Below are positions 93 to 52,915 of a stretch of 64,000 nt of DNA, one piece after another. The stretch comes from Porticoccaceae bacterium (GTDB taxonomy: Bacteria; Pseudomonadota; Gammaproteobacteria; Pseudomonadales; Porticoccaceae). Every line of letters begins with the position of its first letter. Position 1 is the first letter of the stretch. A model generated the notes under the pieces. That model had not been told where the DNA came from. It did no database searches and saw only the letters and a program-made list of their open reading frames with translations. Both the position numbers and the translations under genes were made by a program. Location: the NCBI GenBank assembly GCA_029212965.1, contig JARGOV010000002.1:1638-65637 (forward strand). The letters run 5' to 3'.

Positions 93-704
93 ATGGTCGA
101 GCCGCAAGATCAGCAAGCGCGCCACAAGCGTAAAATGGCGAAGCAAAAAAGCCAGGTTGACCACGGTATTGCCGCCGCGCAACAAGAGCGCGGCGTGCTG
201 GTTCTACTCACCGGAGAGGGCAAAGGCAAAAGTAGTTCCGCCTTTGGCATGGTCATGCGCAGCCTTGGCTATGGCCACAAGGTGGGGGTGGTGCAGTTTA
301 TTAAGGGCGTGCAGTTATCGGGTGAAGAAATTTTTATCCGCGAACGTCACCCCGAGGTTGAACTCTACCAAATGGGCACCGGCTTTACCTGGGAAACTCA
401 GGATAGAGCCGCCGACATTGCTGCTGCCCAAACGACCTGGGCAGTAGCCGAACGCATGCTTGGCGATGCGAGTTTAAATCTGGTGGTGCTCGACGAGCTG
501 ACCTACATGTTGGGCTTTAAATATCTGGATGAAAGCCGAGTGCTAGATGTGCTTGTCCAGCGTCCGGCGGAGCAATCGGTAGTTATTACGGGTCGAGGCG
601 GGGGTAGTGCCTTGCAGACCCTGGCCGATACGGTGGCAGAAATAAAAGATATTAAGCATGCCTATAAAAACGGCATCAAGGCGCGTCTGGGTGTCGATTT
701 TTAA
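93..704 (+). CDS. cobO: Cob(I)yrinic acid a,c-diamide (corrinoid) adenosyltransferase, CobO/BtuR family
   Basis: 203-aa ORF with the P-loop-like GEGKGKSSSAFG and the VVQFIKG and LVVLDELTY blocks typical of CobA/CobO/BtuR. It is followed by a B12-type ABC importer. Confidence 0.85.
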   Translation: MVEPQDQQARHKRKMAKQKSQVDHGIAAAQQERGVLVLLTGEGKGKSSSAFGMVMRSLGYGHKVGVVQFIKGVQLSGEEIFIRERHPEVELYQMGTGFTWETQDRAADIAAAQTTWAVAERMLGDASLNLVVLDELTYMLGFKYLDESRVLDVLVQRPAEQSVVITGRGGGSALQTLADTVAEIKDIKHAYKNGIKARLGVDF

Positions 705-745
705 CGCGCGCTTTTTAGCAATCTTGTTGAGCAGGTTGTAGTCAC

Positions 746-1813
746 TTGTCGCGTATTAATCCCCGTACTTTTTTGTGGCTGGCCGCCCTGGCGCTTGTTC
801 CCGCCATGTTGTTCGGCTTGCTGCTTGGCCCCATTACCATCCCCTTCAGCGCAATTACCGATAGTCTTTTACAGCCTGGGTTACGGACTGAGCTGAACGG
901 CGAGTTGCAGAGTCAGTTTTTGATCCTTTCGCAAATCAGGTTGCCGCGTATGTTGCTGGCGGCCCTGGTGGGTGCTGGCCTGGCCATTTGCGGAGCTGCC
1001 ATGCAGGGCCTGTTTCGTAACCCCCTGGCAGACCCTTCGCTGATTGGCGTATCGGCTGGGGCCTCCGCGGGGGCCAGTTTTGTGATTGTCTTTGCCGGTG
1101 GCTGGCTGCAGGCGGGCCATGGTAATGAAACCCTGGGTTTGTCGTTAATGGCAGCGGGTGCTTTTAGCGGCGGTTTTATTGCTGTGCTGGTGGTGTATCG
1201 CCTGGCGACCTCGGCCAGCGGGCCACTCAACAGGGGAACGTCGGTGGCGACGATGCTGCTGGCAGGTATTGCCATCAGTGCACTGGCGGGTGCCTGTAAT
1301 AGCGCGTTGAGCTTTGTCGCCGATAACGACATGCTGCGTCGTATTAGTCTCTGGCAAATGGGGCGGCTAGACGGTGCCAATTGGTTGCGCGTGATTATGG
1401 CTGGACTGGCTTTGGTTTTAACCGTGGTTGGATTATTGGGGCAGAGCAAAGCCTTGAATGCCTTGTTGCTCGGCGAGTCTGAGGCCTGCTTTCTTGGCAT
1501 TGATGTCGAGCAGCTCAAGCGCCGGGTGGTGCTACTAACAGCACTCTGCATTGGCGTTTCGGTTGCGGTGGCGGGGGCTATTGCCTTCGTCGGTCTTGTT
1601 GTGCCGCATATTGTACGTTTGTTGATTGGTCCCGATCATCGCTTTCTATTACCTAGCTCGGCCCTTCTCGGTGCATTGTTGTTAGTGTTTGCCGATACAC
1701 TGTCACGGGTTATTGTGGCACCGGCGGAATTACCGGTGGGTATTGTCACTGCCTTGCTTGGCGTACCTTTCTTTTTTTCCTTGCTTGTTCGTCAGCGCAC
1801 TCGGGTGGCTTGA
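746..1813 (+). CDS. btuC: FecCD-family ABC transporter permease (vitamin B12/siderophore type, BtuC-like)
   Basis: 355-aa polytopic membrane ORF with a typical FecCD/BtuC C-terminus (ELPVGIVTALLGVPFFFSLL). Its stop overlaps the next ORF. The B12 assignment is inferred from cobO and BtuF-like neighbours. Confidence 0.7.
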   Translation: MSRINPRTFLWLAALALVPAMLFGLLLGPITIPFSAITDSLLQPGLRTELNGELQSQFLILSQIRLPRMLLAALVGAGLAICGAAMQGLFRNPLADPSLIGVSAGASAGASFVIVFAGGWLQAGHGNETLGLSLMAAGAFSGGFIAVLVVYRLATSASGPLNRGTSVATMLLAGIAISALAGACNSALSFVADNDMLRRISLWQMGRLDGANWLRVIMAGLALVLTVVGLLGQSKALNALLLGESEACFLGIDVEQLKRRVVLLTALCIGVSVAVAGAIAFVGLVVPHIVRLLIGPDHRFLLPSSALLGALLLVFADTLSRVIVAPAELPVGIVTALLGVPFFFSLLVRQRTRVA

Positions 1814-2589
1814 GGATGGCTCTGTGTGCAGAGGGCGCGAGCCTGACCATTCAGCATAAAACGCTGTTGCAGGCGACGGATGTACAGCTTGTGGCTGGAG
1901 AAATCACCGCAATATGTGGCCCGAATGGGGCCGGTAAAACGAGCCTGCTGCGAGTGCTGGCAGGAGATGCCAGTCTGAGTAGCGGGCGAGTTTGTTTAAA
2001 TGACCAACCTTTAGCTCATTGGGTGGCAACCGATAGGGCGCAGACACTGGCGGTACTGCCTCAGCACTCGAGCCTCGAGTTCGCTTTCGCAGTGGAAGAT
2101 GTTGTAGCCCTGGGTCGCACACCCCACAACAGTGGCTACCAGTATGACCGGCAAGTTGTGAGTGCGGCTCTGGCTGCCATTGATGGCGAGCAATTACGCC
2201 AGCGCAATTACATGGCGTTATCCGGTGGCGAGCAACAGCGGGTACAGCTCGCCCGTGTGCTGGCCCAGCTGTGGGAACCCTCGCCTCACGGTGAACGCCA
2301 CTTGTTACTGGATGAGCCGACGGCTTCTCTTGATCTTGCGCACCAGGTCTTGCTGCTTAACGTGCTAAAGAATTTTGCGGCGCAGGGTGTGGGTATTTGT
2401 GTCGTCGTGCACGATTTAAATTTGGCGGCACGTATGGCCGATCGCCTGCTCATTATGCAAAACGGGAGCATTGTGGCCAGCGGTTCGCCTGTCGAGGTAC
2501 TGCAGGCCGAATTGATTGCGCATGTCTTTGGGGTGCACGTTGAATTGGTTGCCCACCCCAAACACGAAATCCCGCTGGTGGTTTTGTAG
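1810..2589 (+). CDS. btuD: ABC transporter ATP-binding protein (BtuD/FecE-like)
   Basis: Walker A GPNGAGKTS, signature LSGGEQQRV, Walker B LLLDEPT. Translationally coupled on both sides (4-nt and 1-nt overlaps). Confidence 0.75.
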   Translation: MRMALCAEGASLTIQHKTLLQATDVQLVAGEITAICGPNGAGKTSLLRVLAGDASLSSGRVCLNDQPLAHWVATDRAQTLAVLPQHSSLEFAFAVEDVVALGRTPHNSGYQYDRQVVSAALAAIDGEQLRQRNYMALSGGEQQRVQLARVLAQLWEPSPHGERHLLLDEPTASLDLAHQVLLLNVLKNFAAQGVGICVVVHDLNLAARMADRLLIMQNGSIVASGSPVEVLQAELIAHVFGVHVELVAHPKHEIPLVVL

Positions 2590-3530
2590 TGCGCATTATT
2601 GTTCGATTGAAAGCGTGTCTAGCGTTGCTGGTTTCACTTTGTTTTGTGGGGCCGGTAACGGCAGAAATTAACGTTGTTGACAGCACCGGGGCGACTCTCA
2701 CTCTTGGCCAGCCCGCGCAACGTATTGTTAGTTTAGCGCCCCATCTTACTGAACTGTTGTTTGCCGCAGGCGCCGGCGAGCAACTGGTTGGTACGGTGGA
2801 TTACAGTGATTACCCCGCGGCGGCGCTAAAAATCCCTCGAATAGGGGCTTATAATTCCATCTCTGATGAGGCTATCGTCAATTTATCACCCGACCTGGTA
2901 CTGGCCTGGCAGAGTGGTAATGGCGGCGAAATGGTTGCCCGTTTAAGGGCTTTGGGCTTGTCGGTGTATGTCGACGAGCCTGATTCACTAGCGGCGATTG
3001 GCGAAAGCCTTGGTAAGCTTGGGCAACTGGCGGGAACGGAGCTTGAGGCCAGGCGAGTGATGATGGCGTATCAACAGAAGCTGCTGGAATTACGCCGCCT
3101 CTACAGCCTGCAACGACCCTTATCCGTCTTTTATCAGATTTGGGATGACCCTTTGCTCACCATTAATGGCGAACACTTGATTTCAAAAGTCATCGAATTG
3201 TGTGGCGGACGTAATGTCTTTGCCAGTGCGGTGCCGTTGGTGCCGAAGCTGAGTGTTGAATCGGTGCTCGCGCTTAACCCGCAGGTCATTCTCGCCAGCG
3301 GTGAAGAAGAGCAGCGCCGAGAGTGGCTCAAGGACTGGCAAGCGTGGCCCATGTTGGATGCCGTGAAATCGGGTCGTCTTTATTTTGTGCCCGCCAGCCT
3401 TTTACAGCGTCATACGCCACGTTTATTAGAGGGGGCAGAGTTACTGTGTCGGCAACTCGATGTGGCGCGCCAGCAGTTACCAGCGGCCGACATCCAGCAA
3501 AATGCCACAAATAGTGTATTGCGTTTATAG
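2589..3530 (+). CDS. btuF: Periplasmic cobalamin/iron-siderophore binding protein (BtuF-like, class III SBP)
   Basis: 313-aa ORF with a signal peptide (LALLVSLCFVGPVTA) and the layout of a BtuF-type binding protein. Last gene of the cobO-ABC operon. Confidence 0.65.
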   Translation: MRIIVRLKACLALLVSLCFVGPVTAEINVVDSTGATLTLGQPAQRIVSLAPHLTELLFAAGAGEQLVGTVDYSDYPAAALKIPRIGAYNSISDEAIVNLSPDLVLAWQSGNGGEMVARLRALGLSVYVDEPDSLAAIGESLGKLGQLAGTELEARRVMMAYQQKLLELRRLYSLQRPLSVFYQIWDDPLLTINGEHLISKVIELCGGRNVFASAVPLVPKLSVESVLALNPQVILASGEEEQRREWLKDWQAWPMLDAVKSGRLYFVPASLLQRHTPRLLEGAELLCRQLDVARQQLPAADIQQNATNSVLRL

Positions 3531-4835
3531 GTCGTAGCCACGCTCATCGTGCAGAGCGATATCCAGTCCTTCGGTTTCTTCATCACTGGTGACTCGCAGC
3601 CCCATTAGCGCGTCGAGCACTTTGAGTAAGATATAGGTGATAACCGCCGTGTAAATAAAGGTAGCGGCTACGCCAATGGCCTGCACGCCCAGTTGTGAGC
3701 CCATGCTCATACCCTCGGCATAACCCTGGCCGCTAAAGGCGCCGAGCTGGTCGGAGGCAAAAAAACCGGCCAGCAAGGTGCCGATAATGCCGCCGACGCC
3801 GTGCACGGGGAAGACATCTAGCGAATCATCAATTTTAAACTTCTGTTTTATGGCCTGAGTGGCGAAGTAGCAAACAATGCCGGCGCCAAAGCCGATAAGC
3901 AGGGCGCCGCCTGGCCCAACAAAACCCGAGGCGGGGGTGATGGTGCCGAGTCCGGCAACCATGCCGGTGACGATACCCAGTACTGATGGTTTGCCGTGGC
4001 GAATCCACTCCATCATCATCCACGAGAGTGAGCCGGCTGCCGCTGAGATGTGCGTCACTAGCATGGCCATGCCGGCGTCACCGTTGGCCGCTAGTGCCGA
4101 GCCACCGTTAAAGCCAAACCAGCCGACCCAGAGCATGCCCGCACCCATCACGGTCATGGTCATATTGTGGGGTGGCATGGCCTGTGAGCCAAAGCCTTTG
4201 CGGTTGCCAATAACCATGGCGGCAACCAGTGCCGCGACCCCGGCGGTGATGTGTACCACTGTTCCACCGGCAAAATCGAGCAGCCCCATTTGGCCGAGCC
4301 AGCCACCGCCCCACACCCAATGGGTGACGGGCACATACACGAGCACTAGCCAGAGCATGCTGAACACCATCATGGTGGAAAAGCGTGCCCGCTCGGCGAA
4401 GGCGCCAACAATCAGCGCTGGGGTAATAATGGCAAAGGTCATCTGGAACAGAGCGAAGACGCTTTCGGGGATGTCGCCACTTAAGGTTGATTCACCCATA
4501 TTAGCAAACAGAGCGTTGTCGAAATTGCCTATCCAGTTATTCAGGCTGCCACCATCGCCAAAGGCGAGGCTGTAGCCAAAAGTCAGCCAGACAACGGAGG
4601 CTCCGCAGGTAATGGCAAAACACTGCATCAGCACCGACAGGACATTTTTACTGCGCACCAATCCGCCGTAAAACAGTGACAGGCCGGGGATCGTCATAAA
4701 CAATACCAGTGCAGTGGAGGTCATAATCCACGCTGTATTGGCGCTGTGCATTTCGTCGGCGAAACCGGTAACCGGAGACACTAGAAGGGCTAGTAGACAC
4801 GCGCTGGGCAGGAGTTTGTTAAGAGATGGGAGCAT
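3525..4835 (-). CDS. amtB: Ammonium transporter (Amt family)
   Basis: 436-aa, roughly 11-TM ORF with Amt signatures (DFAGGTVVHITAG, VHGVGGIIGTLLAG). Its 3' end overlaps the btuF-like gene convergently by 6 nt. Confidence 0.9.
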   Translation of the reverse strand: MLPSLNKLLPSACLLALLVSPVTGFADEMHSANTAWIMTSTALVLFMTIPGLSLFYGGLVRSKNVLSVLMQCFAITCGASVVWLTFGYSLAFGDGGSLNNWIGNFDNALFANMGESTLSGDIPESVFALFQMTFAIITPALIVGAFAERARFSTMMVFSMLWLVLVYVPVTHWVWGGGWLGQMGLLDFAGGTVVHITAGVAALVAAMVIGNRKGFGSQAMPPHNMTMTVMGAGMLWVGWFGFNGGSALAANGDAGMAMLVTHISAAAGSLSWMMMEWIRHGKPSVLGIVTGMVAGLGTITPASGFVGPGGALLIGFGAGIVCYFATQAIKQKFKIDDSLDVFPVHGVGGIIGTLLAGFFASDQLGAFSGQGYAEGMSMGSQLGVQAIGVAATFIYTAVITYILLKVLDALMGLRVTSDEETEGLDIALHDERGYDL

Positions 4836-5165
4836 GGATATCGCCTGTTATAAGGTTAGTTTTGTGCCGGTGATTATCAAATACAGGTGGTCAGCCAGTA
4901 TAAAGACTGCCCTATTATTGGCCGCAGGAAAAATACTGTGTGCAATTTTAGTGAAAAAAGGGGAGATATCTAGCTTTTTTGTCGGAATGAGTAATATTTT
5001 GGTGCGCTACTTAGTGGTTTATTGGTGCGTGCTATGTTGTTCTTTGGCTATCAATTGTCGTTGTGGTTTTCTAGGTTGATTGCATTTGCCCTGTATTTCG
5101 GTGCAGGCTGTGGTCGAGGGTTATACTCAAAACTTAGGGCAGCTTTATAAAGAGAGGATTCGCTG

Positions 5166-5435
5166 ATGTCAGAAAAAAACTTACTTGAGCAGGCGCAAAC
5201 CCTGCGCGCAGAGTTAGAAAAGGCACGAGATATTGACGAGGCAAAGAGTTATCTAATGGGTGACCTGTTAAGCGAAATCATTGAGCATGTGACCAGTAAC
5301 GAAGAGAGTGATATGCCCACCCAAAAGTACAGTGATAGCTTGCGTGGTGAGGTCGCCCACTTCGAGGCAGAGCACCCTAAAATTGCCGGTATGTTAGAAA
5401 GATTAGCGACGATGTTGTCAAGCTTGGGTATTTAA
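5166..5435 (+). CDS. Small helical protein, DUF4404-like
   Basis: 89-aa acidic ORF ending in FEAEHPKIAGMLERLATMLSSLGI, as I recall for DUF4404 proteins. RBS-like GAGAGGA lies upstream. Confidence 0.5.
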   Translation: MSEKNLLEQAQTLRAELEKARDIDEAKSYLMGDLLSEIIEHVTSNEESDMPTQKYSDSLRGEVAHFEAEHPKIAGMLERLATMLSSLGI

Positions 5436-5459
5436 TGACCGGCTAATGACCTTGGGAGC

Positions 5460-6455
5460 TTATAAGCCCGTAGCAGGTGAGCTCGTCGTCAATAGGCCTA
5501 CAGTAAATCGTGCGCTGATATACCAGGTCGCTCCAGAGCCGACGAGTAGAAAGACGAGACTCCAACCAATAGCCCGCCAGCGGTAGCGAACACTGAGAAT
5601 GTTCTGCTCATCGCAGCCAATTAAAAAAGGTAGCCCGGGGGCTGTGGGTTTAGTCATGACGTGTTCTTTATCGAGTTGCGAGTTTATACGCTGCTGTCTT
5701 AGGGCTTCTTTTTTTGCCGCCTGCTGCACGTCTTTCCACTCGGCAATATCCAGCTCGCCGTCGTTATTGGTATCGTATTTTTCCAGTAAGTTAGTAAAAC
5801 TTCCTTTCCAGGAACGTAGAATATTCCCTGTCATCTTTTCGATGGAAAGGCTTCGCCGACCAGAGCTGTCGGTGCTGAAATGGCCGAGTATATACAGTGG
5901 ATCGTTCTCTTTAATCAGGCGCTCGGTATAACGATAGCGTTTGCCAATGCCAATGTTAGTGTTCAATAAACGGCCCAATGTGTTGGTCGATTTACCGCCA
6001 GGTCCACCCAATGGGTGTCGTAATCGTCCTTGCCATTTCTTAGTGTGTCGCGTCATCAAATCCGCGCCTTCGGGCTTTACCAGGCACAACCCACTGGTGT
6101 CATCGATGTGAAAAGGTTGTTCACTGGTGCCACTTTCAAGTGTTACCCAACGGTTCGACTTCCCTGAGCTTTTGTACTGTTCAATGGAGTAATACCACCA
6201 TAAACAAGGAGTGGCGCTTAGAGGGGCGCTCAGGTGTTTACCGTGGGGTTTACCGATGCCGATTAACTCGGTAAAACCCTGACTTGCAGAGCGAATCCGG
6301 GAAGTGGGCATGTCTTCGATCAAACGGGATTTTTTGAAGCTACGATAGGCGAGGTACACGGCATAACCCGAAGCGACTAATAACAAAGCAGCCCAAAGAA
6401 TAAATTGTGCTGTCGGTTCGGCGGCGATGCAGGGGCGACAGAAGAAGTGGTTCAT
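5460..6455 (-). CDS. GIDE-domain membrane protein with an embedded EF-hand loop
   Basis: 331-aa ORF with N- and C-terminal TM segments and a layout typical of bacterial GIDE (PF12483-like) proteins that pair with LemA. Canonical EF-hand loop DTNNDGELDIAE is at 5739-5774. Confidence 0.6.
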   Translation of the reverse strand: MNHFFCRPCIAAEPTAQFILWAALLLVASGYAVYLAYRSFKKSRLIEDMPTSRIRSASQGFTELIGIGKPHGKHLSAPLSATPCLWWYYSIEQYKSSGKSNRWVTLESGTSEQPFHIDDTSGLCLVKPEGADLMTRHTKKWQGRLRHPLGGPGGKSTNTLGRLLNTNIGIGKRYRYTERLIKENDPLYILGHFSTDSSGRRSLSIEKMTGNILRSWKGSFTNLLEKYDTNNDGELDIAEWKDVQQAAKKEALRQQRINSQLDKEHVMTKPTAPGLPFLIGCDEQNILSVRYRWRAIGWSLVFLLVGSGATWYISARFTVGLLTTSSPATGL

Positions 6456-23868: not shown

Positions 23869-24435
23869 CTACAACCCATAGCGATCGCGACGAGCGAGGA
23901 AAGTTTCAACATCGACGGCCATTGATAGTACGTCGTGAACTTTCCCTTCTCTGTCCTTGACTTCATTTTCAAGTACAGCTTCGGGGTGAAAGCCCAGTTC
24001 CTGAAAGAGTTTACGGGCACCCGTTTGGTCTAGGGTCATACGGGCATAGATCTTTTCGATTTTTTTGGTCAGTGCGATACGAAACAGTTCGCGCACAAGA
24101 GCGCGACCGACACCTGTTTCTCGATGATTGGGGCCGACCATGATGCGCAATTCGGCAACGTGGCGGGACCACTCAATCTCCCCTCGACTCAGAGTTCCGT
24201 AGCCAATAATCTCATCATCAATATTGGCGATGACACTGATGTTTTTTCCGTACTCAATTTTTTTTACCCAAGAATCAATGACGCGGGGTTTAAGGATGTC
24301 ACGGCGCAAAAACATTAAATCGTGAGGCGGCAAGGTCTTGGCGAAAGCCAGCATATCCTCCTTGTCCTGCTCAGACATTAAGTGCAGAGAGGCCTGACCA
24401 TTACGTAATTCAATTTGTTTAGGGAATGTTTCCAA
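23869..24435 (-). CDS. GNAT-family N-acetyltransferase
   Basis: 188-aa ORF with the acetyl-CoA-binding motif RETGVGRALV. It lies 53 nt downstream of phaC on the same strand. Confidence 0.75.
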   Translation of the reverse strand: METFPKQIELRNGQASLHLMSEQDKEDMLAFAKTLPPHDLMFLRRDILKPRVIDSWVKKIEYGKNISVIANIDDEIIGYGTLSRGEIEWSRHVAELRIMVGPNHRETGVGRALVRELFRIALTKKIEKIYARMTLDQTGARKLFQELGFHPEAVLENEVKDREGKVHDVLSMAVDVETFLARRDRYGL

Positions 24436-24488
24436 AATTTCTCTCCAGCAGTAAAGTATTTAATAAAATGTGGAAGATAGTTGGTTGT

Positions 24489-25556
24489 CTAAAAGGATCT
24501 TTCTTCTAACCACTTAGCGACTTGGGGCCAGAGCCGAAATACAGCATTACCACCAGCTATTAAACTGACGTGACCGCCTTTGAGGACAATTTCAGACTTA
24601 TCGTCACTGCCTATCAACTGTATCAAAGCTTCGGATGCAGCGGTGGGCACGATGTGATCGTGAAGTGCTGCAATGTGTAAAAAGGGCGCAACAATATTTC
24701 CCAAGTTGGCATTTTTGCCCTTAATTTCCATCTGCCCTTTATAGACCTTGTTGTCTTGTAAAAAATCTTGAAAGAGTTGCCGAGCAGCTTCACCGGCAAT
24801 TGGCACTTGATCTGCTGTCCAGCGCTCAAAGCGATAGTGTGCTTCAAGAAATTTGTCATCGCCTGCATTGTCGAGCAGTTGCATTCGCCCGGCAGTTTTT
24901 TGCAAGGGCCGCAAGGCTTGCAGCATGGTGTCGACCATGCCGCCGGGTATGTTGCCCAGTTGTGTGACAATTTGGTCAATATCAAAGGTTTCATTATCGG
25001 CCCAACTCTTATACAAGGGCATGCCTTCAGTGTTGACTGGGGTAGCAATGTCGACCAAATTTTTGATATTTTTTTCCGGGTGAAGGGCTGTATAAAGAGA
25101 GGCGATTACACCACCTAGGCAGTAGCCAATTAAGGAGACTTCATCTTCTCCACAGTCATCGGCCACTTTTTCAAGACAGTCCGGAAGAAAGTCATCGACG
25201 TAGGTATCAAAACAAAAATGTTGATGCTCTTTTCTCGGTAAACCCCAGTCAATGAGATAGACATCAAAGCCTTGTGCCACCAAGTATTCGACGAAGCTTT
25301 GTCCGGGTGCTAGGTCTACGATGTAATAGCGGTTGATCAAAGACATGACGAGAACGATTGGCACGCGATAAATTTCATCGCAGACCGGGTGGTAGTGATA
25401 AAGCTTCATGGGGCCGCGAGAATAGATAATATCTTTTGGCGTAACGCCTAGATCGAGAGCAAGGCCGTCGAGGTGCTTTAGGCCATCAATATTCCGTGAA
25501 AGTACTTTTTTAACAGCATCCTTAATTTTATCGTCTACTTCATTTTCACTGCTCAT
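24489..25556 (-). CDS. phaC: Poly(3-hydroxyalkanoate) synthase catalytic subunit PhaC (class III/IV type)
   Basis: 355 aa, the size typical of two-subunit synthases. Cys lipase box GYCLGG, the YLIDWG block, and downstream Asp/His candidates (HDHIVP, GGHVSL). Confidence 0.85.
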   Translation of the reverse strand: MSSENEVDDKIKDAVKKVLSRNIDGLKHLDGLALDLGVTPKDIIYSRGPMKLYHYHPVCDEIYRVPIVLVMSLINRYYIVDLAPGQSFVEYLVAQGFDVYLIDWGLPRKEHQHFCFDTYVDDFLPDCLEKVADDCGEDEVSLIGYCLGGVIASLYTALHPEKNIKNLVDIATPVNTEGMPLYKSWADNETFDIDQIVTQLGNIPGGMVDTMLQALRPLQKTAGRMQLLDNAGDDKFLEAHYRFERWTADQVPIAGEAARQLFQDFLQDNKVYKGQMEIKGKNANLGNIVAPFLHIAALHDHIVPTAASEALIQLIGSDDKSEIVLKGGHVSLIAGGNAVFRLWPQVAKWLEERSF

Positions 25557-25566
25557 TTGGCCCCAC

Positions 25567-25992
25567 CTATTTGTCGTCAGTTGTGGTGTTCTTGTCTGGG
25601 CTTGCTGGTTTTGTTGGTGGCTTACGTGTTCTCCGAGGTTTTGTGGTTGACGAAGTGGGCTCTTGGCCTGTTGAGGCGAGTTGTTTTTTCAGCAAGTGTA
25701 TTTCGGCGGTAAGTGTTGAAAGTGCATCTTCAACACCGCTGAGCCTGTCCTCCACACCGAGCACATCGGCGCGGGAGGGCAAATTAAGTGCCGCCAGCTG
25801 TTGCCCCACCATTTCAGTGAACATGTTCTGGGCGTGGAGCCATTCCTGGAAATAGTGGCCTAACATTTTGCTCGACTTCTCGTCGGCCATGATGTCTGTG
25901 AGGGCGCCACTCCATTGCTTCTCTGATTTTTGAACCCACTCGCGCCACATTCTCATGGGTTCCAGGAAATGCTTGTCTTTATCTTGGCTCAT
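25567..25992 (-). CDS. Small PHA synthase subunit (PhaE/PhaR-like) with a basic Pro/Lys/Thr tail
   Basis: 141-aa ORF 10 nt upstream of phaC. The W-rich N-terminus and the LNLPSRADVLGVEDRLSGVEDAL coiled-coil segment resemble PhaE/PhaR subunits as I recall them. Tail: TKPRRTRKPPTKPASPDK. Confidence 0.55.
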   Translation of the reverse strand: MSQDKDKHFLEPMRMWREWVQKSEKQWSGALTDIMADEKSSKMLGHYFQEWLHAQNMFTEMVGQQLAALNLPSRADVLGVEDRLSGVEDALSTLTAEIHLLKKQLASTGQEPTSSTTKPRRTRKPPTKPASPDKNTTTDDK

Positions 25993-26034
25993 CTCATATC
26001 TTCCTTATATATTGACGGGGGGTATTGCCCTGGC

Positions 26035-26442
26035 TCAGGGTTTTGGGTCTTTTGCTTTATCGCCAGGGGGTGGTTCAGGGTTTTCGGTCGCCATTTCGGC
26101 GATTTTCACGAAACGGTTGAGCGTCGCTTTATGCATGTCGAGCAAAGTGATCCAGTTGTTGAGAAATAATGAGCCGGTTTTCGTCAGGCTGTAAATTCTC
26201 CTTGCTGGTCCCTCTGAGGATGTATCCCAGAGTGATGAAATTAAACCGGTTTTTTCCATCTGTCGTAAGGTGCGATACAAGGTGCCACTGTTAAAGCCGC
26301 CGTAACCGGCCTCCTCTAATTTTTTTGCCAATTCGTAGCCGTAGCCAGACCAGTTTTTTAGTAAGGCGAGTAGGTGTGCTGTGAGCATTTCGCTGGGCAT
26401 TTTTGTTGATGGAATTTCTTTGTCTTTTGTCATATGTACCAT
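26035..26442 (-). CDS. PadR-family transcriptional regulator (PhaQ-like by context)
   Basis: Winged-helix core WSGYGYELAKKLEEAGYGGFNSGTLYRTLRQMEKTGLISS. Same strand as and upstream of phaE-phaC, divergent from the phasin-like gene. The start at 26442 or 26433 is preferred over 26481. Confidence 0.75.
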   Translation of the reverse strand: MVHMTKDKEIPSTKMPSEMLTAHLLALLKNWSGYGYELAKKLEEAGYGGFNSGTLYRTLRQMEKTGLISSLWDTSSEGPARRIYSLTKTGSLFLNNWITLLDMHKATLNRFVKIAEMATENPEPPPGDKAKDPKP

Positions 26443-26468
26443 TCGTTGATCAGATTGAAATGAGCTAG

Positions 26469-26521
26469 GTGCAATTTGCATTTATTTAATGCTTGACACT
26501 ATATGCAGTTTGCATTTAAAT
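26469..26521 (+). promoter_or_regulatory. Sigma-70-type promoter of the phasin-like gene, overlapped by paired palindromes (candidate PadR operators)
   Basis: TTGACA (26493-26498), 17-nt spacer, TTAAAT (26516-21). The palindromes are GTGCA-ATT-TGCAT (26469-81) and ATGCA-GTT-TGCAT (26503-15); the second fills the promoter spacer. Confidence 0.5.
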
Positions 26522-26614
26522 AGCAAGCATATCTTGTTGTTGCTTATCGACTTCAGGGTAAAGCGCAAGCCACGAGTGCTCGGCGTAATTTGTTAATTTA
26601 TCTGAGGAAGAGCT

Positions 26615-27142
26615 ATGACCGAATCGAAAGCAAGTGCTGCAAAATCTAAGCCATCATCTAAGTCCACAAAGGCGGAGTCAGGCATGTCTTTAGAAGTTCA
26701 GAGCTATATTGATACGCTAATTGAAAATCAGAAAATTGTGAGTGGGGCTTTTAAAAGTGCCCGTGATCGCGGTGTTCGTTTCGGCGATTCTCTTGGCAAG
26801 CGTATTGCCGACAACCAGGCCCAAGCTTTGGGGTTGTCTAAAAAACTCGCTGCTAACCCAAAAGACTATCAGGGCAATATAGGTGCCTTGTTGGAGTCGC
26901 TGACCCAGTCGCAGGCTGAGGCCTTTGAAGTGTTTAAAGCGATGGTCAGTGAGCAGCGAGATATGTCCGACAGCTTTAATAGTACGGCTAAATCGCTTTT
27001 TGAAGGTACTCGTAACTCATCAAAAGCGGCGCTGAGTCTGTACCGTTCTTGGGGGGTGCAAAACCCAATGACTGAGCTTGTGAAAAAATCTGTTGCCAGC
27101 GCAACCGAAGCTGCTGAAAAAATGGCCAAGGCTGTCGCTTAA
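26615..27142 (+). CDS. Phasin-like PHA granule-associated protein (by context and composition)
   Basis: 175-aa Ala/Lys/Ser/Glu-rich helical ORF with no enzymatic motifs, beside the PHA synthase genes. Lys/Ser-rich N-terminus (ASAAKSKPSSKSTKAES). Confidence 0.4.
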   Translation: MTESKASAAKSKPSSKSTKAESGMSLEVQSYIDTLIENQKIVSGAFKSARDRGVRFGDSLGKRIADNQAQALGLSKKLAANPKDYQGNIGALLESLTQSQAEAFEVFKAMVSEQRDMSDSFNSTAKSLFEGTRNSSKAALSLYRSWGVQNPMTELVKKSVASATEAAEKMAKAVA

Positions 27143-27265
27143 CTAGACTCAGGCTAGGGTAGCCTTAAATAAAAGGTTGCCCTAGCTTTTATTTAAGCGT
27201 TTTTGAAGTAGTATGCTGCGTTGTTAAATTAACGGGCTACAGAATTTACGCAACGGGGTTGAGGC

Positions 27266-28090
27266 ATGAGTGAAAGCAATGCAAGTGATGTTATGGAGGA
27301 GCTACTCGAGCATCTAGAAGATGATGATCAAGACGGCCCTTTTGCCCATGACCCCTCTATAGAATCTACGCTGACCCCAATTTGGCGCGAAGCTATTTTT
27401 CCGGCAGAATTTGCGGCGCTGCACTGCCACCCTGTTTTTTGGGGGCGAGGTGTAGCAAGAGGCAAAGGAGAGCCCGTGTTGGTGATTCCTGGTTTCATTG
27501 CCAATGACCTCATTATGCTGCCGATGCGCCAGTGGATGAGGCGTATAGGCTATAAACCCCACGCGGCGAAAATCCATTGGAATACGAATTGTCCTGAGAA
27601 AACGGCGACTAAATTGATCCGCCAAATTGAAGGAATTTACCGTAAGAGTGGAAAAAAAGTGATCTTGGTGGGCCACAGTCTGGGAGGCATGCTGGCGAAA
27701 ACCATTGTACAAAAAATTCCGGAATTGATTAACCGGGTGATCACCGTGGGCTCACCTTTTCGAGATATTGTTGAAGCCCATCCCGCCGTGGTTGGGGTTT
27801 GGGACTATCTGAAAATTGGACAGGGCAAATTGGTGGGCCGAGATTTAGGGGCATCCTGTGGCACCGGCTATTGTATGTGTGATTTTGTGCAAAACATGAT
27901 TGCACCACGCGAGGTTGATGTGCCCCAATTTGCGATTTACTCCCGAAATGATGGCGTTGTTGGTTGGCAAAGCTGCGCTGAAATAGATGAAAGCCTCAAT
28001 ATTGAAGTCAATAAGGCGTCGCACATGGGACTCGCTTTTAATATCGGTTCTTACAAGGCCTTGGCAAAGCGAATGGCACAAGTGGTTTAG
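27266..28090 (+). CDS. Alpha/beta hydrolase (lipase/esterase-like)
   Basis: 274-aa ORF with the nucleophile elbow GHSLGG after VLVIPGF. The acidic N-terminus lacks a signal peptide. Confidence 0.7.
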   Translation: MSESNASDVMEELLEHLEDDDQDGPFAHDPSIESTLTPIWREAIFPAEFAALHCHPVFWGRGVARGKGEPVLVIPGFIANDLIMLPMRQWMRRIGYKPHAAKIHWNTNCPEKTATKLIRQIEGIYRKSGKKVILVGHSLGGMLAKTIVQKIPELINRVITVGSPFRDIVEAHPAVVGVWDYLKIGQGKLVGRDLGASCGTGYCMCDFVQNMIAPREVDVPQFAIYSRNDGVVGWQSCAEIDESLNIEVNKASHMGLAFNIGSYKALAKRMAQVV

Positions 28091-48319: not shown

Positions 48320-49498
48320 ATGGCTGTAGAATCAAAAGCATCTTCAGGTAAAACTTTATTACCTAAAATATTGCCCACTTGGCTACCTGGAGCAGCGCTC
48401 ATTAATGAGGTCTTTGATTCTCCAGAGGGGACTCCGCGGCCGACAGTCTCACTGCGTTCTGCACTTTTGGTTGGTGCTGACGAGGCACTGCTTGTTGGTC
48501 TGGGTTTGGCCTCGCGGATACGTTTTCCAACCCCTGGCTTTCGTCAGCGTTCGGCCAAGGAAATGGAAGATGCCCTTGAGTATTTTCAAGCAAGTGGTTG
48601 GCTGGATGACCCACGGACTTACCATCAAAAACCTCCCGCTCTCGAAAAGGTGAGTTTCAAAAATTCATCATCTGGGGGCACTAGTTTCGAGCATATGACG
48701 TTTGAAAGTGGCTATGTGCCGCGAATGGGTGAAGCTGGTCGGGCACGCTGGCTCGGTTATGAGAGCAATCATACCAGTCATTGCTGGGTGCTTCGCCATG
48801 CAGGCCCGCCCCGACCTTGGATGATACACATCCATGGCTACCGCATGGGGACACCATACCTGGATTTTAAGGCTTTTAGCACTCAATATATCCACCAAAC
48901 TAAAGGCTTTAATGTTCTCCATTATGTTATTCCCTTGCATGGGCCAAGAAAGATAGGCCCAACCAGTGGTGACGGTTTGTTGTCACCTGGTTATGTCAAT
49001 GCAATACATGCCGAAGCCCAAGCGATGTTTGAATTGCGGCGGATTATTGACTGGTTGCGTCGAGATGGTGCTGAGCAAATAGGTGTTCATGGTATCTCAC
49101 TGGGTGGTTTTACAACGGCTCTGCTGGCGACTCTCGAAGGTAATCTTTCCTGTGTTATTGCTGGCATACCTGCAGTCGAGTTAGTCAAAGCAGCACGTAG
49201 ATTGGGGCGGCGCAACCTGCTGTATTTCTTTGATAACTTAAATATGCCTTGGGATGAAATTGAAAAAATGGCGCAGGTAATATCGCCAACAGCAATGAAG
49301 GTTAAAGTCCCGAAAAAACGGCGTTTTATTTATGCCGGTGTTCTCGACCGCTTGGTTCATCCGGCAGAGCCGCTGGGCTTGTGGGAGCACTGGGATCGTC
49401 CAGCCATAGAATGGTACCAGGGTAATCACATGACATTTGCTCGCGATAAAAATGTTCGCACATTCATTGATAACGCCCTCGATGCATCATTTACTTAA
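48320..49498 (+). CDS. Alpha/beta hydrolase (serine hydrolase, ABHD18-like by recollection)
   Basis: 392-aa ORF with the nucleophile elbow HGISLGG and candidate Asp (GVLDRLV) and His (QGNHMTF). RBS AGAGGTGA is upstream. Confidence 0.7.
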   Translation: MAVESKASSGKTLLPKILPTWLPGAALINEVFDSPEGTPRPTVSLRSALLVGADEALLVGLGLASRIRFPTPGFRQRSAKEMEDALEYFQASGWLDDPRTYHQKPPALEKVSFKNSSSGGTSFEHMTFESGYVPRMGEAGRARWLGYESNHTSHCWVLRHAGPPRPWMIHIHGYRMGTPYLDFKAFSTQYIHQTKGFNVLHYVIPLHGPRKIGPTSGDGLLSPGYVNAIHAEAQAMFELRRIIDWLRRDGAEQIGVHGISLGGFTTALLATLEGNLSCVIAGIPAVELVKAARRLGRRNLLYFFDNLNMPWDEIEKMAQVISPTAMKVKVPKKRRFIYAGVLDRLVHPAEPLGLWEHWDRPAIEWYQGNHMTFARDKNVRTFIDNALDASFT

Positions 49499-49666
49499 AG
49501 TGCCGGGTATTGTCCGATACGCCACGAATGGCTTGCAGGTTTAACATCATAACTGTGAGGAATTTGTATCATGCCTAATGTTTATTATATAAACCTAATT
49601 CGGGTGCGCTGAGCTGACTAGTGCAAGCGCGAAGTATTAGCTTCTTATGGACAATAGGTGGAAATA

Positions 49667-52600
49667 ATGACGGAAAAGGACAGGCCCACTGGTGGTTTTG
49701 AAATTTTAGGTAGTACGTCTCGGCTAGCCGCGGCATTAAAAAATGCATCAGTTTTGGCGCGCTTTGGACGACTCGAGCCGCGCAGGGGTACGCTCTATTC
49801 TGTTCCTCACGAGAGTCCTGTTTATCGCTTGCGTTGTTATGATGTGAAAAATTCTCGGAAAGCTTGTGTGCCCATCATTCTCGTGCCGCCATTAATGATG
49901 AGTGCCGATGTTTTTGACGTTTCAAAAAAAATCAGCGCCGTAGATTATTTGAACGAACAAGGTTTTTCTGTTTGGTTAGTTGATTTTGGTGAGCCTGCTG
50001 ATCAGGAGGGTGGGCTGCATCGAGATATGAGCGACCATGTGGTTGCGGTGAATGATGCTATAGATTTTGTCTATGCTCAGCAGCGTAAGCCAGTGCATTT
50101 GGCGGGATATTGCCAGGGTGGTATTTTCTGCTATCTTGCGGTGGCGTACCGAAAGTCTAAAAACGTAGGCTCGATTGTTTCTTTTGCCGCTCCGGTCAAT
50201 CTTTACAAAAACTTTCTACCTGGGGTGTCTGATGAATTGACCCTCAAGGTTCTAGAGACGATTGGTGAAGCTGTCCCTACAAGTATTTTGCCCTCTTCTA
50301 TTCCAGGCTGGGCGAGCAAAAATCTATTTAGAATGCTGGCCCCAGTCAAACAGCTTCAATCGTGGCTTTCTTTGCTTAAAATGCTCGACGACAAAGATGC
50401 GATACTTAAGGGGGAGGATCAAAGGTCGTTTATGTCTGATGGTTTTGTCGCCTGGCCAGGCCCTGCCATGCTTGAATTTATGCGACAAATGCTGATGGGC
50501 AACCGCATGGTTTCAGGGGGCTGTGTGATTGAAGGGCGAACAGTTTCACTGACAGATATTACCTGCCCAATGCTAGCTGTCATCGGTGGTAATGATTCTA
50601 TAGCCCGTCCTCGTTCGGTTCGCGGTATCGTCGAGGCAGCACCTAACTCAGAGCGTTACCAGCTGTACTTGCCTCAAGCTGGACATCTCGGTGTCTTAGT
50701 TGGCGGGAGTGCGATGAAAAATACTTGGTCTACGGTGAACCATTGGTTGAGTTGGCGGGATGGTAACGCTGATAAACCGGAACGGATTAGCCTACTCGAT
50801 GAGGTGGGTAGCGAAGACAATGCAAGTGCTTCGGAGGAGGGTAATTTAGCGACAGCACTAACCAAGACAATGTTTGGTATGAGCAAGAGCCTTTTGGGTA
50901 CAGCGGGTGATTTACTCGGAAGCACTAAAACATCTCTGCAGACCATGAGCGATAATTTTAGTTCGCAGCTCAGCCATTTGACACGACTACAAAAACTCGA
51001 CTCTGATAGTAAAGTCGGTTTCGCTTTGTCATTGGAAGAGCAAGCAAGAAAATCACCTGACGATACGTATTTTCTCTATGCTGAAAGAGCGCATACCTAT
51101 GCTAATTCTAATCAGCGAGTCGACAATATTGTTCGTGGCTTAATTTCAATTGGGGTTCGTCGAGGCGATCATGTTGGTGTACTTATGCATGCGCGGCCTT
51201 CGGCGTTGGCAACAAATTTGGCGGTTAACCGCTTGGGGGCAGTTGCAGTCCAATTGCGCGACAGGTCCCAGCTCGCCACCGAATTAAAACTTGCTGAAGT
51301 GCAGTACCTTATAGCCGACCCTGAAAATGCACAGGCCGGGGTGACAACCTTTAATGGCCAGACCTATATCCTCGGAGGCTTTGGACGCTCTCGTCGTGAA
51401 TTACCGGAGAGTGTGATTGACATGGAGAAAATTGATCCCTCGCGAGTCGCTTTGCCAGACTGGTATCAACCGTCACCGGGTAAAGCCGATGAAGTGGCAT
51501 TCATTTCCTTTAGTCGCCTAGGGTCTGAAACACATTGCGACAAAATCACTCACCGTCAATGGGCTTTGTATTCTCTGGGTACGGCTTCTGCTACGAGAAT
51601 GGTAAAGGGCGATACGGTTTACTGCTGGACGCCTCTTTATGATCCCACCGGAATGTTAATTGCCGTTAGCGCCTCGTTAGTGGCTGGCGCTCGAATTTGT
51701 CTGGCACGGCAATTTGACACAAATACCTTTTGGCATGAAGTGAGAAGCTATGGTGCGAATATTGTTTTCTATTCTGGCGGTATGTTGCGTGAGTTAGTGG
51801 ATGCTCCCAAACATAAATTGGAGCGTGGTAACAGTATCCGTTTGTTTGCCGGTACCGGTATGCCAGAGGCTTTGAGTCAGCGAGTGGCAGAGCGTTTTGG
51901 TGATGCATCAATAATGGAAATTTACCTGTCTACTCGCCACCATGCCTATTTGGCGAATCTTAAAAATAATAAATCAGGTGCTGTTTTCCAACAACTGCCA
52001 GGTAGTAACGACATTGCTCTAGTTCATTGGGATTACCATACAAATCTACCTTTTTATGATACGGCAGGCTATTTGTGCCCTACCCCGGTTGGAGCGGTAG
52101 GTATGCTACTGGTTAAGGCCGATAATGGAATCAGTTATCGAGATAATACGTATATTTCAGACGTTTTTGAAAAGGGTGATGGTTGGCAAATTTCCGGTGA
52201 CTTGTTCTTGCTAGATAACGATGGGGATTACCACTTTGTTGATCGAGCCAGTAATTTGATCTTGACTAAGGATGATGCAATACCGACGCCGCCTATCGAG
52301 ACTGCGATTAGCACAATAGATGGTATCAGCGTCGCAACTGCTTATGGTGTAACCATAGAAGGTTGCGATTTTCAGGTTCCCGTCGCGTCGGTTGTTCTTA
52401 AAGATAAATTTAAGCTCGTCGCGCTAGATTTAACCACAGCATTGACTGAACAGCTTGATAATAAGAGCTTGCCGCTCGTTGTGATAGTCGCAAATAGTTT
52501 GCCGATGACGCCTAGCTATCAAGTGCAAAAACAAATATTAGCTGATACTGGAATCCCTCAAGGGGGACTCAAAAGGGGGCAGGCATTTTGGTTTAATAAC

Positions 52601-52915
52601 AAATCGGCAAAATATGAATCTCTTACTCAGGCATCATTGTCACGACTCATTCGCGATCTCATTGGCTTGGCCGCTACGGAGTCTGCCACCGCTCGAGCGG
52701 CAACAAAGGGTAGTGCTCTTGAAAAAAAGAGAGTGCCTAAAAAAACGAAAGCTCGTAAGAAGAAAGTCCATACGAAAACGGCCAAAAAAAGAGACCTTTC
52801 TCCGAATATAGTCAAGAAAGAAACTGAACTTAATGGCGGCATGTCGGCGAGTGATATGACTGACGGGGCATCGAGCCTAATTGAAACCACTGGCCAAGAT
52901 GCTCACTTACATTGA
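49667..52915 (+). CDS. Fusion protein: PhaC-like Cys-Asp-His alpha/beta domain + linker + adenylate-forming (FadD/FATP)-like domain + lysine-rich tail
   Basis: The N-terminal ~370 aa parallel the PhaC in this window (QGFSVWLVDFG; GYCQGG with Cys at 50111-13; NDS Asp at 50594-96; AGHLG His at 50684-86). The C-terminal ~500 aa show acyl-CoA synthetase-like blocks (ISGDLFLLDNDGDYHFVDR). The tail is KKRVPKKTKARKKKVHTKTAKKR. The ATG at 49667 follows the SD AGGTGGA. Confidence 0.7.
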   Translation: MTEKDRPTGGFEILGSTSRLAAALKNASVLARFGRLEPRRGTLYSVPHESPVYRLRCYDVKNSRKACVPIILVPPLMMSADVFDVSKKISAVDYLNEQGFSVWLVDFGEPADQEGGLHRDMSDHVVAVNDAIDFVYAQQRKPVHLAGYCQGGIFCYLAVAYRKSKNVGSIVSFAAPVNLYKNFLPGVSDELTLKVLETIGEAVPTSILPSSIPGWASKNLFRMLAPVKQLQSWLSLLKMLDDKDAILKGEDQRSFMSDGFVAWPGPAMLEFMRQMLMGNRMVSGGCVIEGRTVSLTDITCPMLAVIGGNDSIARPRSVRGIVEAAPNSERYQLYLPQAGHLGVLVGGSAMKNTWSTVNHWLSWRDGNADKPERISLLDEVGSEDNASASEEGNLATALTKTMFGMSKSLLGTAGDLLGSTKTSLQTMSDNFSSQLSHLTRLQKLDSDSKVGFALSLEEQARKSPDDTYFLYAERAHTYANSNQRVDNIVRGLISIGVRRGDHVGVLMHARPSALATNLAVNRLGAVAVQLRDRSQLATELKLAEVQYLIADPENAQAGVTTFNGQTYILGGFGRSRRELPESVIDMEKIDPSRVALPDWYQPSPGKADEVAFISFSRLGSETHCDKITHRQWALYSLGTASATRMVKGDTVYCWTPLYDPTGMLIAVSASLVAGARICLARQFDTNTFWHEVRSYGANIVFYSGGMLRELVDAPKHKLERGNSIRLFAGTGMPEALSQRVAERFGDASIMEIYLSTRHHAYLANLKNNKSGAVFQQLPGSNDIALVHWDYHTNLPFYDTAGYLCPTPVGAVGMLLVKADNGISYRDNTYISDVFEKGDGWQISGDLFLLDNDGDYHFVDRASNLILTKDDAIPTPPIETAISTIDGISVATAYGVTIEGCDFQVPVASVVLKDKFKLVALDLTTALTEQLDNKSLPLVVIVANSLPMTPSYQVQKQILADTGIPQGGLKRGQAFWFNNKSAKYESLTQASLSRLIRDLIGLAATESATARAATKGSALEKKRVPKKTKARKKKVHTKTAKKRDLSPNIVKKETELNGGMSASDMTDGASSLIETTGQDAHLH

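Follow-up and report, generated by a model that had tools for sequence, protein, structure and literature searches.

Does a protein that joins a polyhydroxyalkanoate (PHA) synthase-like hydrolase to an adenylate-forming domain still make acyl-adenylate? The question is raised by a gene in the 64,000-nucleotide stretch of Porticoccaceae bacterium DNA analysed here (contig JARGOV010000002.1, positions 1,638 to 65,637 of the forward strand; hereafter the window), which codes for an N-terminal PhaC-like alpha/beta-hydrolase domain, a C-terminal domain of the ANL superfamily and a basic tail; residues are numbered throughout on the 1085-aa reading from its GTG codon. A first-pass annotation, made by eye from the letters, had proposed that the ANL half has lost its canonical catalytic motifs and is a pseudo-enzyme or a repurposed binding module rather than a standard acyl-CoA synthetase. 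This core reading was upheld by the analysis described below, in which the catalytic residues proved to be substituted, the substitutions fixed in orthologues, the domain strongly constrained and its ANL fold confidently predicted. We consider it likely that the C-terminal half is an adenylation-dead yet functional ANL-fold module serving the PhaC-like domain, that is, a conserved pseudo-enzyme, and the name "acyl-CoA synthetase" is probably wrong for this protein.

Catalytic motifs, selection and fold of the ANL half

In ANL enzymes, the A3 motif (P-loop) contacts the beta- and gamma-phosphates, the Thr-Glu pair of A5 contacts the alpha-phosphate and Mg2+, the A7 Asp and A8 Arg provide ribose contacts, and the adenylation half-reaction requires the A10 Lys. 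Three of the five features examined, namely A3, A5 and A10, are lost in the fusion protein, and two, the ANL fold and the A7 motif together with the A8 hinge, are retained. The best match in a phmmer search against PDB sequences was human FATP2 (9vzp; E 3e-44, ~530 residues aligned), and the alignment pairs YTSGTTGLPK of FATP2 with SFSRLGSETH, YAATE with YLSTR, SGD with SGD, FHDRVGDTFRWKGENV with FVDRASNLILTKDDAI, and TGTFK with TPSYQ. A MAFFT alignment with three ANL enzymes from the same genome placed their TSGTTGRPKG, YG(M/L)TE, TGD, VDR..GGEN and (S/T/N)GK motifs in the same columns. When the ANL half was searched against 1.84 billion representative proteins, other fusions ranked first and were followed, below approximately 160 bits, by free-standing FATP/FadD6-type proteins of about 600 aa; all 13 of the nearest stand-alone relatives fetched are canonical at A3, A4, A5, A7, A8 and A10 when aligned with MAFFT. 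The genome of the bacterium codes for no fewer than three further ANL enzymes: L005 and L006 are fully canonical, and L004 retains the A3 and A10 lysines.

These alignments agree with the first-pass reading in substance and refine it in detail. The string quoted for the P-loop, FSRLGSETHCDK, corresponds to residues 618-629 (51509-51544), and its FSRLGSETH does stand in the P-loop columns in three alignments, the quoted start at 51503 being two codons early. YLSTR, in which Arg was said to replace Glu, occupies the A5 columns in the same three alignments, with two extra codons taken in by the quoted start at 51917, while the coordinates given for PMTPSYQVQK (residues 949-958, 52502-52531) are exact and its Gln falls in the column of the catalytic Lys. 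Retention of the [ST]GD motif and of the hinge was likewise borne out: the string ISGDLFLLDNDGDYHFVDR (residues 845-863, 52190-52246) contains SGD and ends with the A8 hinge VDR (861-863, including Asp862 and Arg863), after which the remainder of A8 reads ASNLILTKDD for xGDTFRWKGE. Loss of the A4 His had been overlooked.

No intact motifs turned up elsewhere in the protein, either by alignment, the FATP2, own-genome and 13-relative alignments being in agreement, or in a regular-expression scan of the entire fusion protein for canonical A3, A5 or A10. A register error is ruled out by the three agreeing alignments with their positive controls, together with the whole-protein scans. Lys958 was considered as a shifted catalytic Lys and rejected, as it aligns with an ordinary basic residue three positions past A10 (HRK in FATP2, GK(V/I)(K/M)K in the enzymes of the same genome).

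The degenerate domain is nevertheless not decaying. We compared the gene with its closest orthologue (locus L008 from a Porticoccaceae metagenome-assembled genome, 87% identity, dS 0.8-1.06) and obtained ratios of nonsynonymous to synonymous substitution (dN/dS) of 0.044 for the hydrolase half, 0.048 for the ANL N-lobe, 0.098 for the ANL C-lobe and 0.295 for the C-terminal tail. The ANL domain is thus under strong purifying selection, with its degenerate state preserved, and decay into a pseudogene is excluded by the low dN/dS. The substitutions are kept in all 12 orthologues (71-89% identity), including Arg760 at the A5 Glu column in 100% of the clade, and the former motif regions vary less than the domain average among these 12 members (entropy 0.20-0.38 vs 0.49). 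An AlphaFold2 (AF2) model built from a 106-sequence alignment has a mean pLDDT (per-residue confidence) of 83.1 and a pTM (predicted whole-chain fold score) of 0.82, with most of the ANL domain above 90 in pLDDT and disorder confined to the N-terminus, part of the linker and the tail. The whole-chain pTM suggests a fixed inter-domain arrangement in the predicted structure. In Foldseek comparisons the model matched ANL enzymes such as 4CL, PchD, MatB and luciferase with TM scores of 0.76-0.82, fitting best to entries in the adenylate conformation (rmsd 3.4-4.6 Å) and poorly to those in the thioester conformation (rmsd ~11 Å). Because the ANL N-lobe is constrained about as strongly as the hydrolase half and the AF2 fold is confident, we regard the ANL half as a non-decaying and probably functional module.

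Motif loss in the Rv1683-type family and on its marine branch

The fusion belongs with proteins of the Rv1683 type (NF005898/PRK07868), and we aligned 182 non-redundant family sequences drawn from 120 database homologues and 80 genome loci with organism names, in which Rv1683 is represented by named Actinomycetota members above the family cut-off. None of the 182 sequences has a canonical P-loop, and the A10 column holds Arg in 141, Gln in 38, gaps in three and Lys in none. Even bona fide members from Actinomadura, Paraconexibacter and Binatia, which score 1007-1291 bits on NF005898, carry F(T/S)GxGxxTR at the P-loop, and their counterpart of TGTFK is TTW(F/Y)R or TAGYR; they retain the A4 His, A5 STE and A7 TGD, and are mostly without the A8 Arg. 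Since these bona fide members are degenerate as well, a non-canonical ANL half is a property of the whole Rv1683-type family and not of this gene alone. Rv1683 had been put forward in the first-pass annotation as a sequence to align against; the motif loss that it was meant to check is real, but with no canonical P-loop or A10 Lys among the 182 sequences Rv1683-type proteins offer no intact comparator, and much of the loss is family-wide. Our literature search found no paper that describes the ANL half of the Rv1683-type family as non-canonical.

Other positions are better preserved. The A4 His is present in 144 of the 182 sequences, Asp or Asn at this position being limited to gammaproteobacterial clades, and the A7 Asp in 166. 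In the hydrolase domain, Asp313 and His343 are invariant (182/182 each), and the nucleophile column contains Ser in 165 sequences and Cys in 17. Two myxobacterial members (L053 and L085, from Polyangiaceae and Sandaracinaceae) have milder P-loops, FTSGRYSKPR and FTAGRAEEPR, with the Pro kept and Arg at the Lys position, which may represent an intermediate state in motif loss.

In a FastTree phylogeny, the only tree built and midpoint-rooted for drawing, the 38 marine gammaproteobacterial sequences constitute a single clade, set off by a long branch (0.66), that falls within Binatia-like sequences and divides into two sub-clades. The sub-clades are paralogues: the genome under study (2.76 Mb, 94% complete) holds a second hydrolase and fusion pair on another contig. 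Both share the replacement of the A3 Gly620 by Arg or Lys, of the Arg at the P-loop Lys position by His, of the A4 His662 by Asp and, in 100% of each (38/38 rows), of the A10 Arg by Gln. The A5 Glu is lost in both, giving STR in the clade of the window and ARG in the other, and the A8 hinge Asp862 is found in 100% of both, while the A8 Arg is retained by the window's clade alone. Tails of 83-123 aa with 17-23 Lys and Arg residues occur in both gammaproteobacterial clades and are absent in Actinomycetota. The conserved E-T-H-C in the old P-loop was examined as a new catalytic constellation and discarded, its His and Cys not being kept in the paralogue clade.

Read from the alignments, the history of the domain is one of stepwise loss. 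Its ancestor was an acyl-CoA synthetase of the FATP/FadD6 type, and the nearest relatives that stand alone still carry every canonical motif. P-loop degeneration and the change of the A10 Lys to Arg date back to the base of the fusion family, and on the gammaproteobacterial branch the ATP-phosphate and Mg2+ residues still left (A3, A4, A5 and A10) were lost too. Step by step the domain has shed all the residues with which ANL enzymes handle the beta- and gamma-phosphates (A3), the alpha-phosphate together with Mg2+ (the Thr-Glu pair of A5) and the transition state of adenylation (Lys at A10). The charge swaps involved (A4 His to Asp, A5 Glu/Thr to Arg, A3 Gly to Arg/Lys, A10 Arg to Gln) suggest that internal salt bridges may now fill the old phosphate site.

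Among 101 genomes of the window's family the fusion is present in 14, limited to two of 20 genera, and one extra copy is broken, for which reasons we regard it as an accessory module, probably horizontally acquired; its long branch inside a group of Binatia-like sequences suggests that it was acquired horizontally and then duplicated. The broken copy, in a related genome (G011:C4:196876-198159), is a fragmentary decayed paralogue of 349 bits that covers model positions 223-648 and contains one TGA and one TAA.

The PhaC-like half and the possible role of the ANL lobe

The N-terminal domain is a full-length PhaC homologue. The PhaC encoded elsewhere in the window (24489-25556; 26% identity, E 7e-28) matches it over its whole length, and Cys152, Asp313 and His343 fall on the corresponding residues of this and of solved PhaCs, forming a complete triad. 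On the class III PHA synthase model TIGR01836 it scores 113.3 bits against a cut-off of 365, a threshold that the genuine PhaC of the same genome also misses slightly (330.8 bits). The GxSxG serine nucleophile of the NF005898 family (S150 of BCG1721) is replaced by Cys152 in the same column, and Cys is the nucleophile of every one of the 12 orthologues and of some members of the paralogue clade.

We envisage a protein in which the chemistry would take place at Cys152/Asp313/His343: a storage polyester or lipid would be the substrate, and an acyl-Cys152 intermediate would lead to either acyl transfer or hydrolysis. The ANL half would be unable to make acyl-adenylate and would, rigidly docked, serve the N-domain as a lobe for ligand binding or scaffolding, its ligand being most plausibly an acyl chain and/or an adenosine-containing compound such as coenzyme A (CoA) or acyl-CoA. 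The basic tail could, by analogy with PhaF and PhaM, plausibly anchor the protein to the granule or nucleoid.

Several points weigh against an adenylation-dead module. Loss of consensus residues predicts inactivity and is no proof of it; the strong constraint, the above-average conservation of the former active-site loops and the retained A7 Asp and A8 Arg would also fit ligand-dependent or unusual catalysis; and the pocket geometry and domain interface are those of a predicted model. In addition, reviews credit overexpression of Rv1683/BCG1721 with TAG (triacylglycerol)-promoting as well as TAG-lipolytic effects, and name it a synthase/lipase (PMC10699116).

An alternative that we hold to be unlikely is that the ANL half is a CoA- or acyl-CoA-binding lobe that has lost adenylation and kept a thioester-side function, presenting CoA to the acyl-Cys/Ser intermediate of the PhaC-like domain or taking up acyl-CoA for it, so that storage ester and acyl-CoA would be interconverted free of ATP, by thiolysis one way and acyl transfer the other. 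Three pieces of background count in its favour: acyl-CoA is the substrate and Cys the nucleophile of PhaC-type enzymes, the thioester half-reaction can proceed without the A10 Lys, and PhaZa1, a depolymerase with a Cys nucleophile, is known for CoA-dependent thiolysis of polyhydroxybutyrate. So do the Cys152/Asp313/His343 triad of a full-length PhaC homologue and the conservation of hinge Asp862, the pivot on which the ANL C-lobe rotates to the thioester conformation, throughout both gammaproteobacterial clades. The reported rise in TAG synthesis and in S150-dependent lipolysis upon BCG1721 overexpression would also be accommodated (PMC10699116). Against it, the lobe arrangement in the AF2 model is adenylation-like rather than thioester-like, the C-lobe is less constrained than the N-lobe (dN/dS 0.098 vs 0.048), and the A8 residues past the hinge vary across the family. 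Its furthest extension, in which the dead lobe would present CoA or acyl-CoA to the PhaC-like Cys/Ser domain and the whole would act as an ATP-independent, reversible storage-ester/acyl-CoA transacylase (for PHA, TAG or wax), is a speculative one to which we give little weight. If true, it would allow thiolytic mobilisation straight to acyl-CoA and the reverse, and would re-explain the dual synthase/lipase phenotype of Rv1683/BCG1721.

We find it very doubtful that the protein is, as its database name implies, a still-active, non-canonical acyl-AMP/acyl-CoA ligase with substitute ATP-binding residues. The purifying selection on the ANL domain, the high conservation of the former motif loops in the orthologue clade, the retained A7 Asp and A8 Arg and the intact ANL fold are all compatible with such an enzyme, but all three phosphate-handling elements are gone together, the Mg2+-binding Glu is now an Arg, and Lys958, being the ordinary second basic residue after A10, is no displaced catalytic Lys. 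Moreover, the two paralogue clades differ at the positions concerned (STR vs ARG; RLGSETH vs KRNDETH), and hence there is no new shared catalytic constellation; and the same genome encodes further ANL ligases, of which two are fully canonical. A decaying remnant, an assembly artefact or a misaligned register has nothing beyond the missing motifs to recommend it and is scarcely credible, given an uninterrupted 1085-codon frame, a dN/dS of 0.05, identical substitutions in the 12 independently assembled orthologues, the agreement of three alignments that include positive controls, and a confident AF2 model, with the stop-containing G011 copy showing how decay looks.

The locus and its comparison with known systems

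The features of the locus are collected in Table 1. The probable start is the ATG at 49667, which has AGGTGGA just ahead of it and gives a 1082-aa protein identical (100%) to database protein P0002; the GTG listed as the start lies within this Shine-Dalgarno-like AGGTGGA (window 49656-49669). NF005898/PRK07868 covers residues 16-997 of the fusion in one stretch (model positions 8-985 of 994) with a score of 879.6 bits, under the equivalog cut-off of 925, and the two lobes of the ANL half are recognised by PF00501 (cut-off 29.9 bits) and PF13193 (cut-off 24.5 bits).

Table 1. Features of the fusion gene and of the gene preceding it (window coordinates; residues on the 1085-aa reading)
Feature	Coordinates	Strand	Details
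Upstream serine alpha/beta-hydrolase, 392 aa, GISLGG	48320..49498	+	weak Pfam matches only: ABHD18, Peptidase_S9
Fusion ORF (open reading frame): PhaC-like hydrolase, ANL-fold domain and basic tail	49658..52915	+	1085 aa from GTG
N-terminal PhaC-like alpha/beta-hydrolase domain, residues ~45-370	49790..50767	+	only PDB sequence matches are PHA synthases
Nucleophile box GYCQGG, Cys152 (149 from ATG)	50105..50122	+	aligns with PhaC GYC(I/L)GG
Catalytic Asp313 of PhaC-type triad	50594..50596	+	aligns with PhaC Asp
Catalytic His343 of PhaC-type triad	50684..50686	+	aligns with PhaC GH(I/V) motif
Inter-domain linker, residues 371-455, long helices	50768..51022	+	AF2 pLDDT <50 at 388-432; dN/dS 0.10
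ANL N-terminal lobe, residues 456-860	51023..52237	+	PF00501 101.4 bits; FATP2 E 3e-44; pLDDT mostly >90
Degenerate A3/P-loop: SFSRLGSETH for (Y/F)TSGTTGxPK	51506..51535	+	Gly620 to Arg, Lys626 to His
A4: PLYD for PLYH	51632..51643	+	His662 to Asp; from the alignments
Degenerate A5: YLSTR (756-760) for Y(G/A)xTE	51923..51937	+	Glu760 to Arg
Retained A7: SGD, residues 846-848	52193..52201	+	Asp848
ANL C-terminal lobe, residues 861-1000	52238..52657	+	PF13193 24.9 bits; begins with A8 hinge VDR
Degenerate A10: TPSYQ for TGTFK	52508..52522	+	catalytic Lys955 to Gln
Disordered Lys/Arg-rich C-terminal tail with acidic end, residues 1001-1085	52658..52912	+	pLDDT <50 from residue 1021

The fusion and the hydrolase gene upstream of it form a module located between glnA and thiI. 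A search of PDB sequences gave no relative of the 392-aa hydrolase, and a promoter scan of the module yielded nothing over shuffled background. The hydrolase gene adjoins the fusion at L008, L009 and the second copy in the same genome (L002), and is absent at L007 ('Gammaproteobacteria bacterium 53_120_T64', 464-1461), where the fusion also lies between glnA and thiI; the partner hydrolase is therefore either dispensable or sited elsewhere in that genome. The second copy, on contig C55, consists of a 413-aa hydrolase (4693-5934, minus strand) and a 1079-aa fusion with GYSQGG (1264-4503, minus strand; 874.6 bits on NF005898), with a PF05597 phasin beside it (299-1036, plus strand) that carries a histone-H1-like Lys/Ala/Pro tail. 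The order hydrolase, fusion, phasin is seen in two genomes (L002 and L009).

A PHA locus occupies both strands of the window at 23869-28090. One strand codes for a GNAT protein, a 355-aa class III/IV-like PhaC (GYCLGG), a 141-aa ORF with weak phasin/PhaE likeness and a basic tail, and a PadR regulator; the divergent strand codes for a phasin-like ORF without a Pfam match and a GHSLGG lipase-like hydrolase (PGAP1/LCAT-like). An obligate tie between the fusion and PHA synthase was considered and dropped: a class III-like PhaC is present in 8 of 14 fusion-bearing and 18 of 87 fusion-less genomes, a weak link, as the genomes are incomplete and their kinship makes them non-independent. No match to PF03007 (wax ester/TAG synthase) was found in the bacterium's own genome; the control genomes gave none either, so the search carries no weight for or against a link with that enzyme.

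The NCBI equivalog model labels the whole family "acyl-CoA synthetase", and the tuberculosis literature refers to Rv1683 as a bifunctional "acyl-CoA synthase/lipase", for a family none of whose 182 aligned members has the A10 Lys or a canonical P-loop, and whose marine branch, though strongly selected, is left with no residue for handling ATP. The present case is of value chiefly because it offers a correction, open to test, of an annotation that has spread widely, and because it shows a conserved pseudo-ANL domain in clean form. Joined for good to an acyl-enzyme domain of the PhaC type, such a domain is a model for the re-use of adenylate-forming folds without adenylation, and the fusion suggests that a step in the turnover of storage lipids or PHA has gone unrecognised.

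Among characterised proteins, the closest in architecture are the Rv1683/BCG1721-type fusions (PRK07868), which have the same two domains over their full length. The mycobacterial Rv1683 protein is lipid-droplet-associated, affects TAG accumulation and breakdown (PMC10699116, PMC11980559) and has been associated with the resistance of M. tuberculosis to benzoxaboroles (PMC5571309). Overexpression of BCG1721 is reported to have increased the synthesis as well as the lipolysis of TAG, with lipolysis depending on S150 (PMC10699116); reviews describe the synthase role as putative, and the findings they give are only phenotypes of overexpression and a lipase-box mutant, S150A. The two reviews, PMC10699116 and PMC11980559, conflict on the order of the domains, one placing the synthase N-terminally and the lipase C-terminally and the other the reverse; our alignments place the hydrolase box (the S150 column) in the N-terminal half.

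The reported catalytic S150 falls in the column of Cys152, and the Asp and His are shared. The present protein differs from Rv1683-type members in scoring below the family cut-off, in its long separate branch, in its Cys rather than Ser nucleophile, and in the additional loss of the A3 Gly, A4 His and A5 Glu, with Gln instead of Arg at A10; its lineage has also gained a basic tail (some 85 aa here), has a conserved partner in the hydrolase encoded upstream, and carries a further copy beside a phasin. The protein is likely to work as the Rv1683/BCG1721 lipid-droplet fusion does, to which it is distantly related, and by score and nucleophile it is no strict member of the equivalog.

The ANL half, taken by itself, is closest to FATP/FadD6-type ligases, with human FATP2 as the nearest solved relative and with the PRK08279 and FadD6 models also matching; these ligases have intact YTSGTTGLPK, PLYH, Y(A/G)xTE, TGD, DRxGDTFRWKGENV and TGTFK, of which SGD and the hinge DR alone survive in the fusion. 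Class III/IV PhaC enzymes have in common with the N-domain the GxCxGG Cys box and the Asp and His; unlike them, the N-domain is fused to an ANL fold, and most members of the fusion family have Ser and not Cys. To our knowledge, no polymerase activity is known for the Rv1683-type fusion family. Finally, PhaF/PhaM-type phasins with histone-H1-like tails have a similar Lys-rich, disordered C-terminal tail, a likeness of composition only, as the fusion is without a phasin domain.

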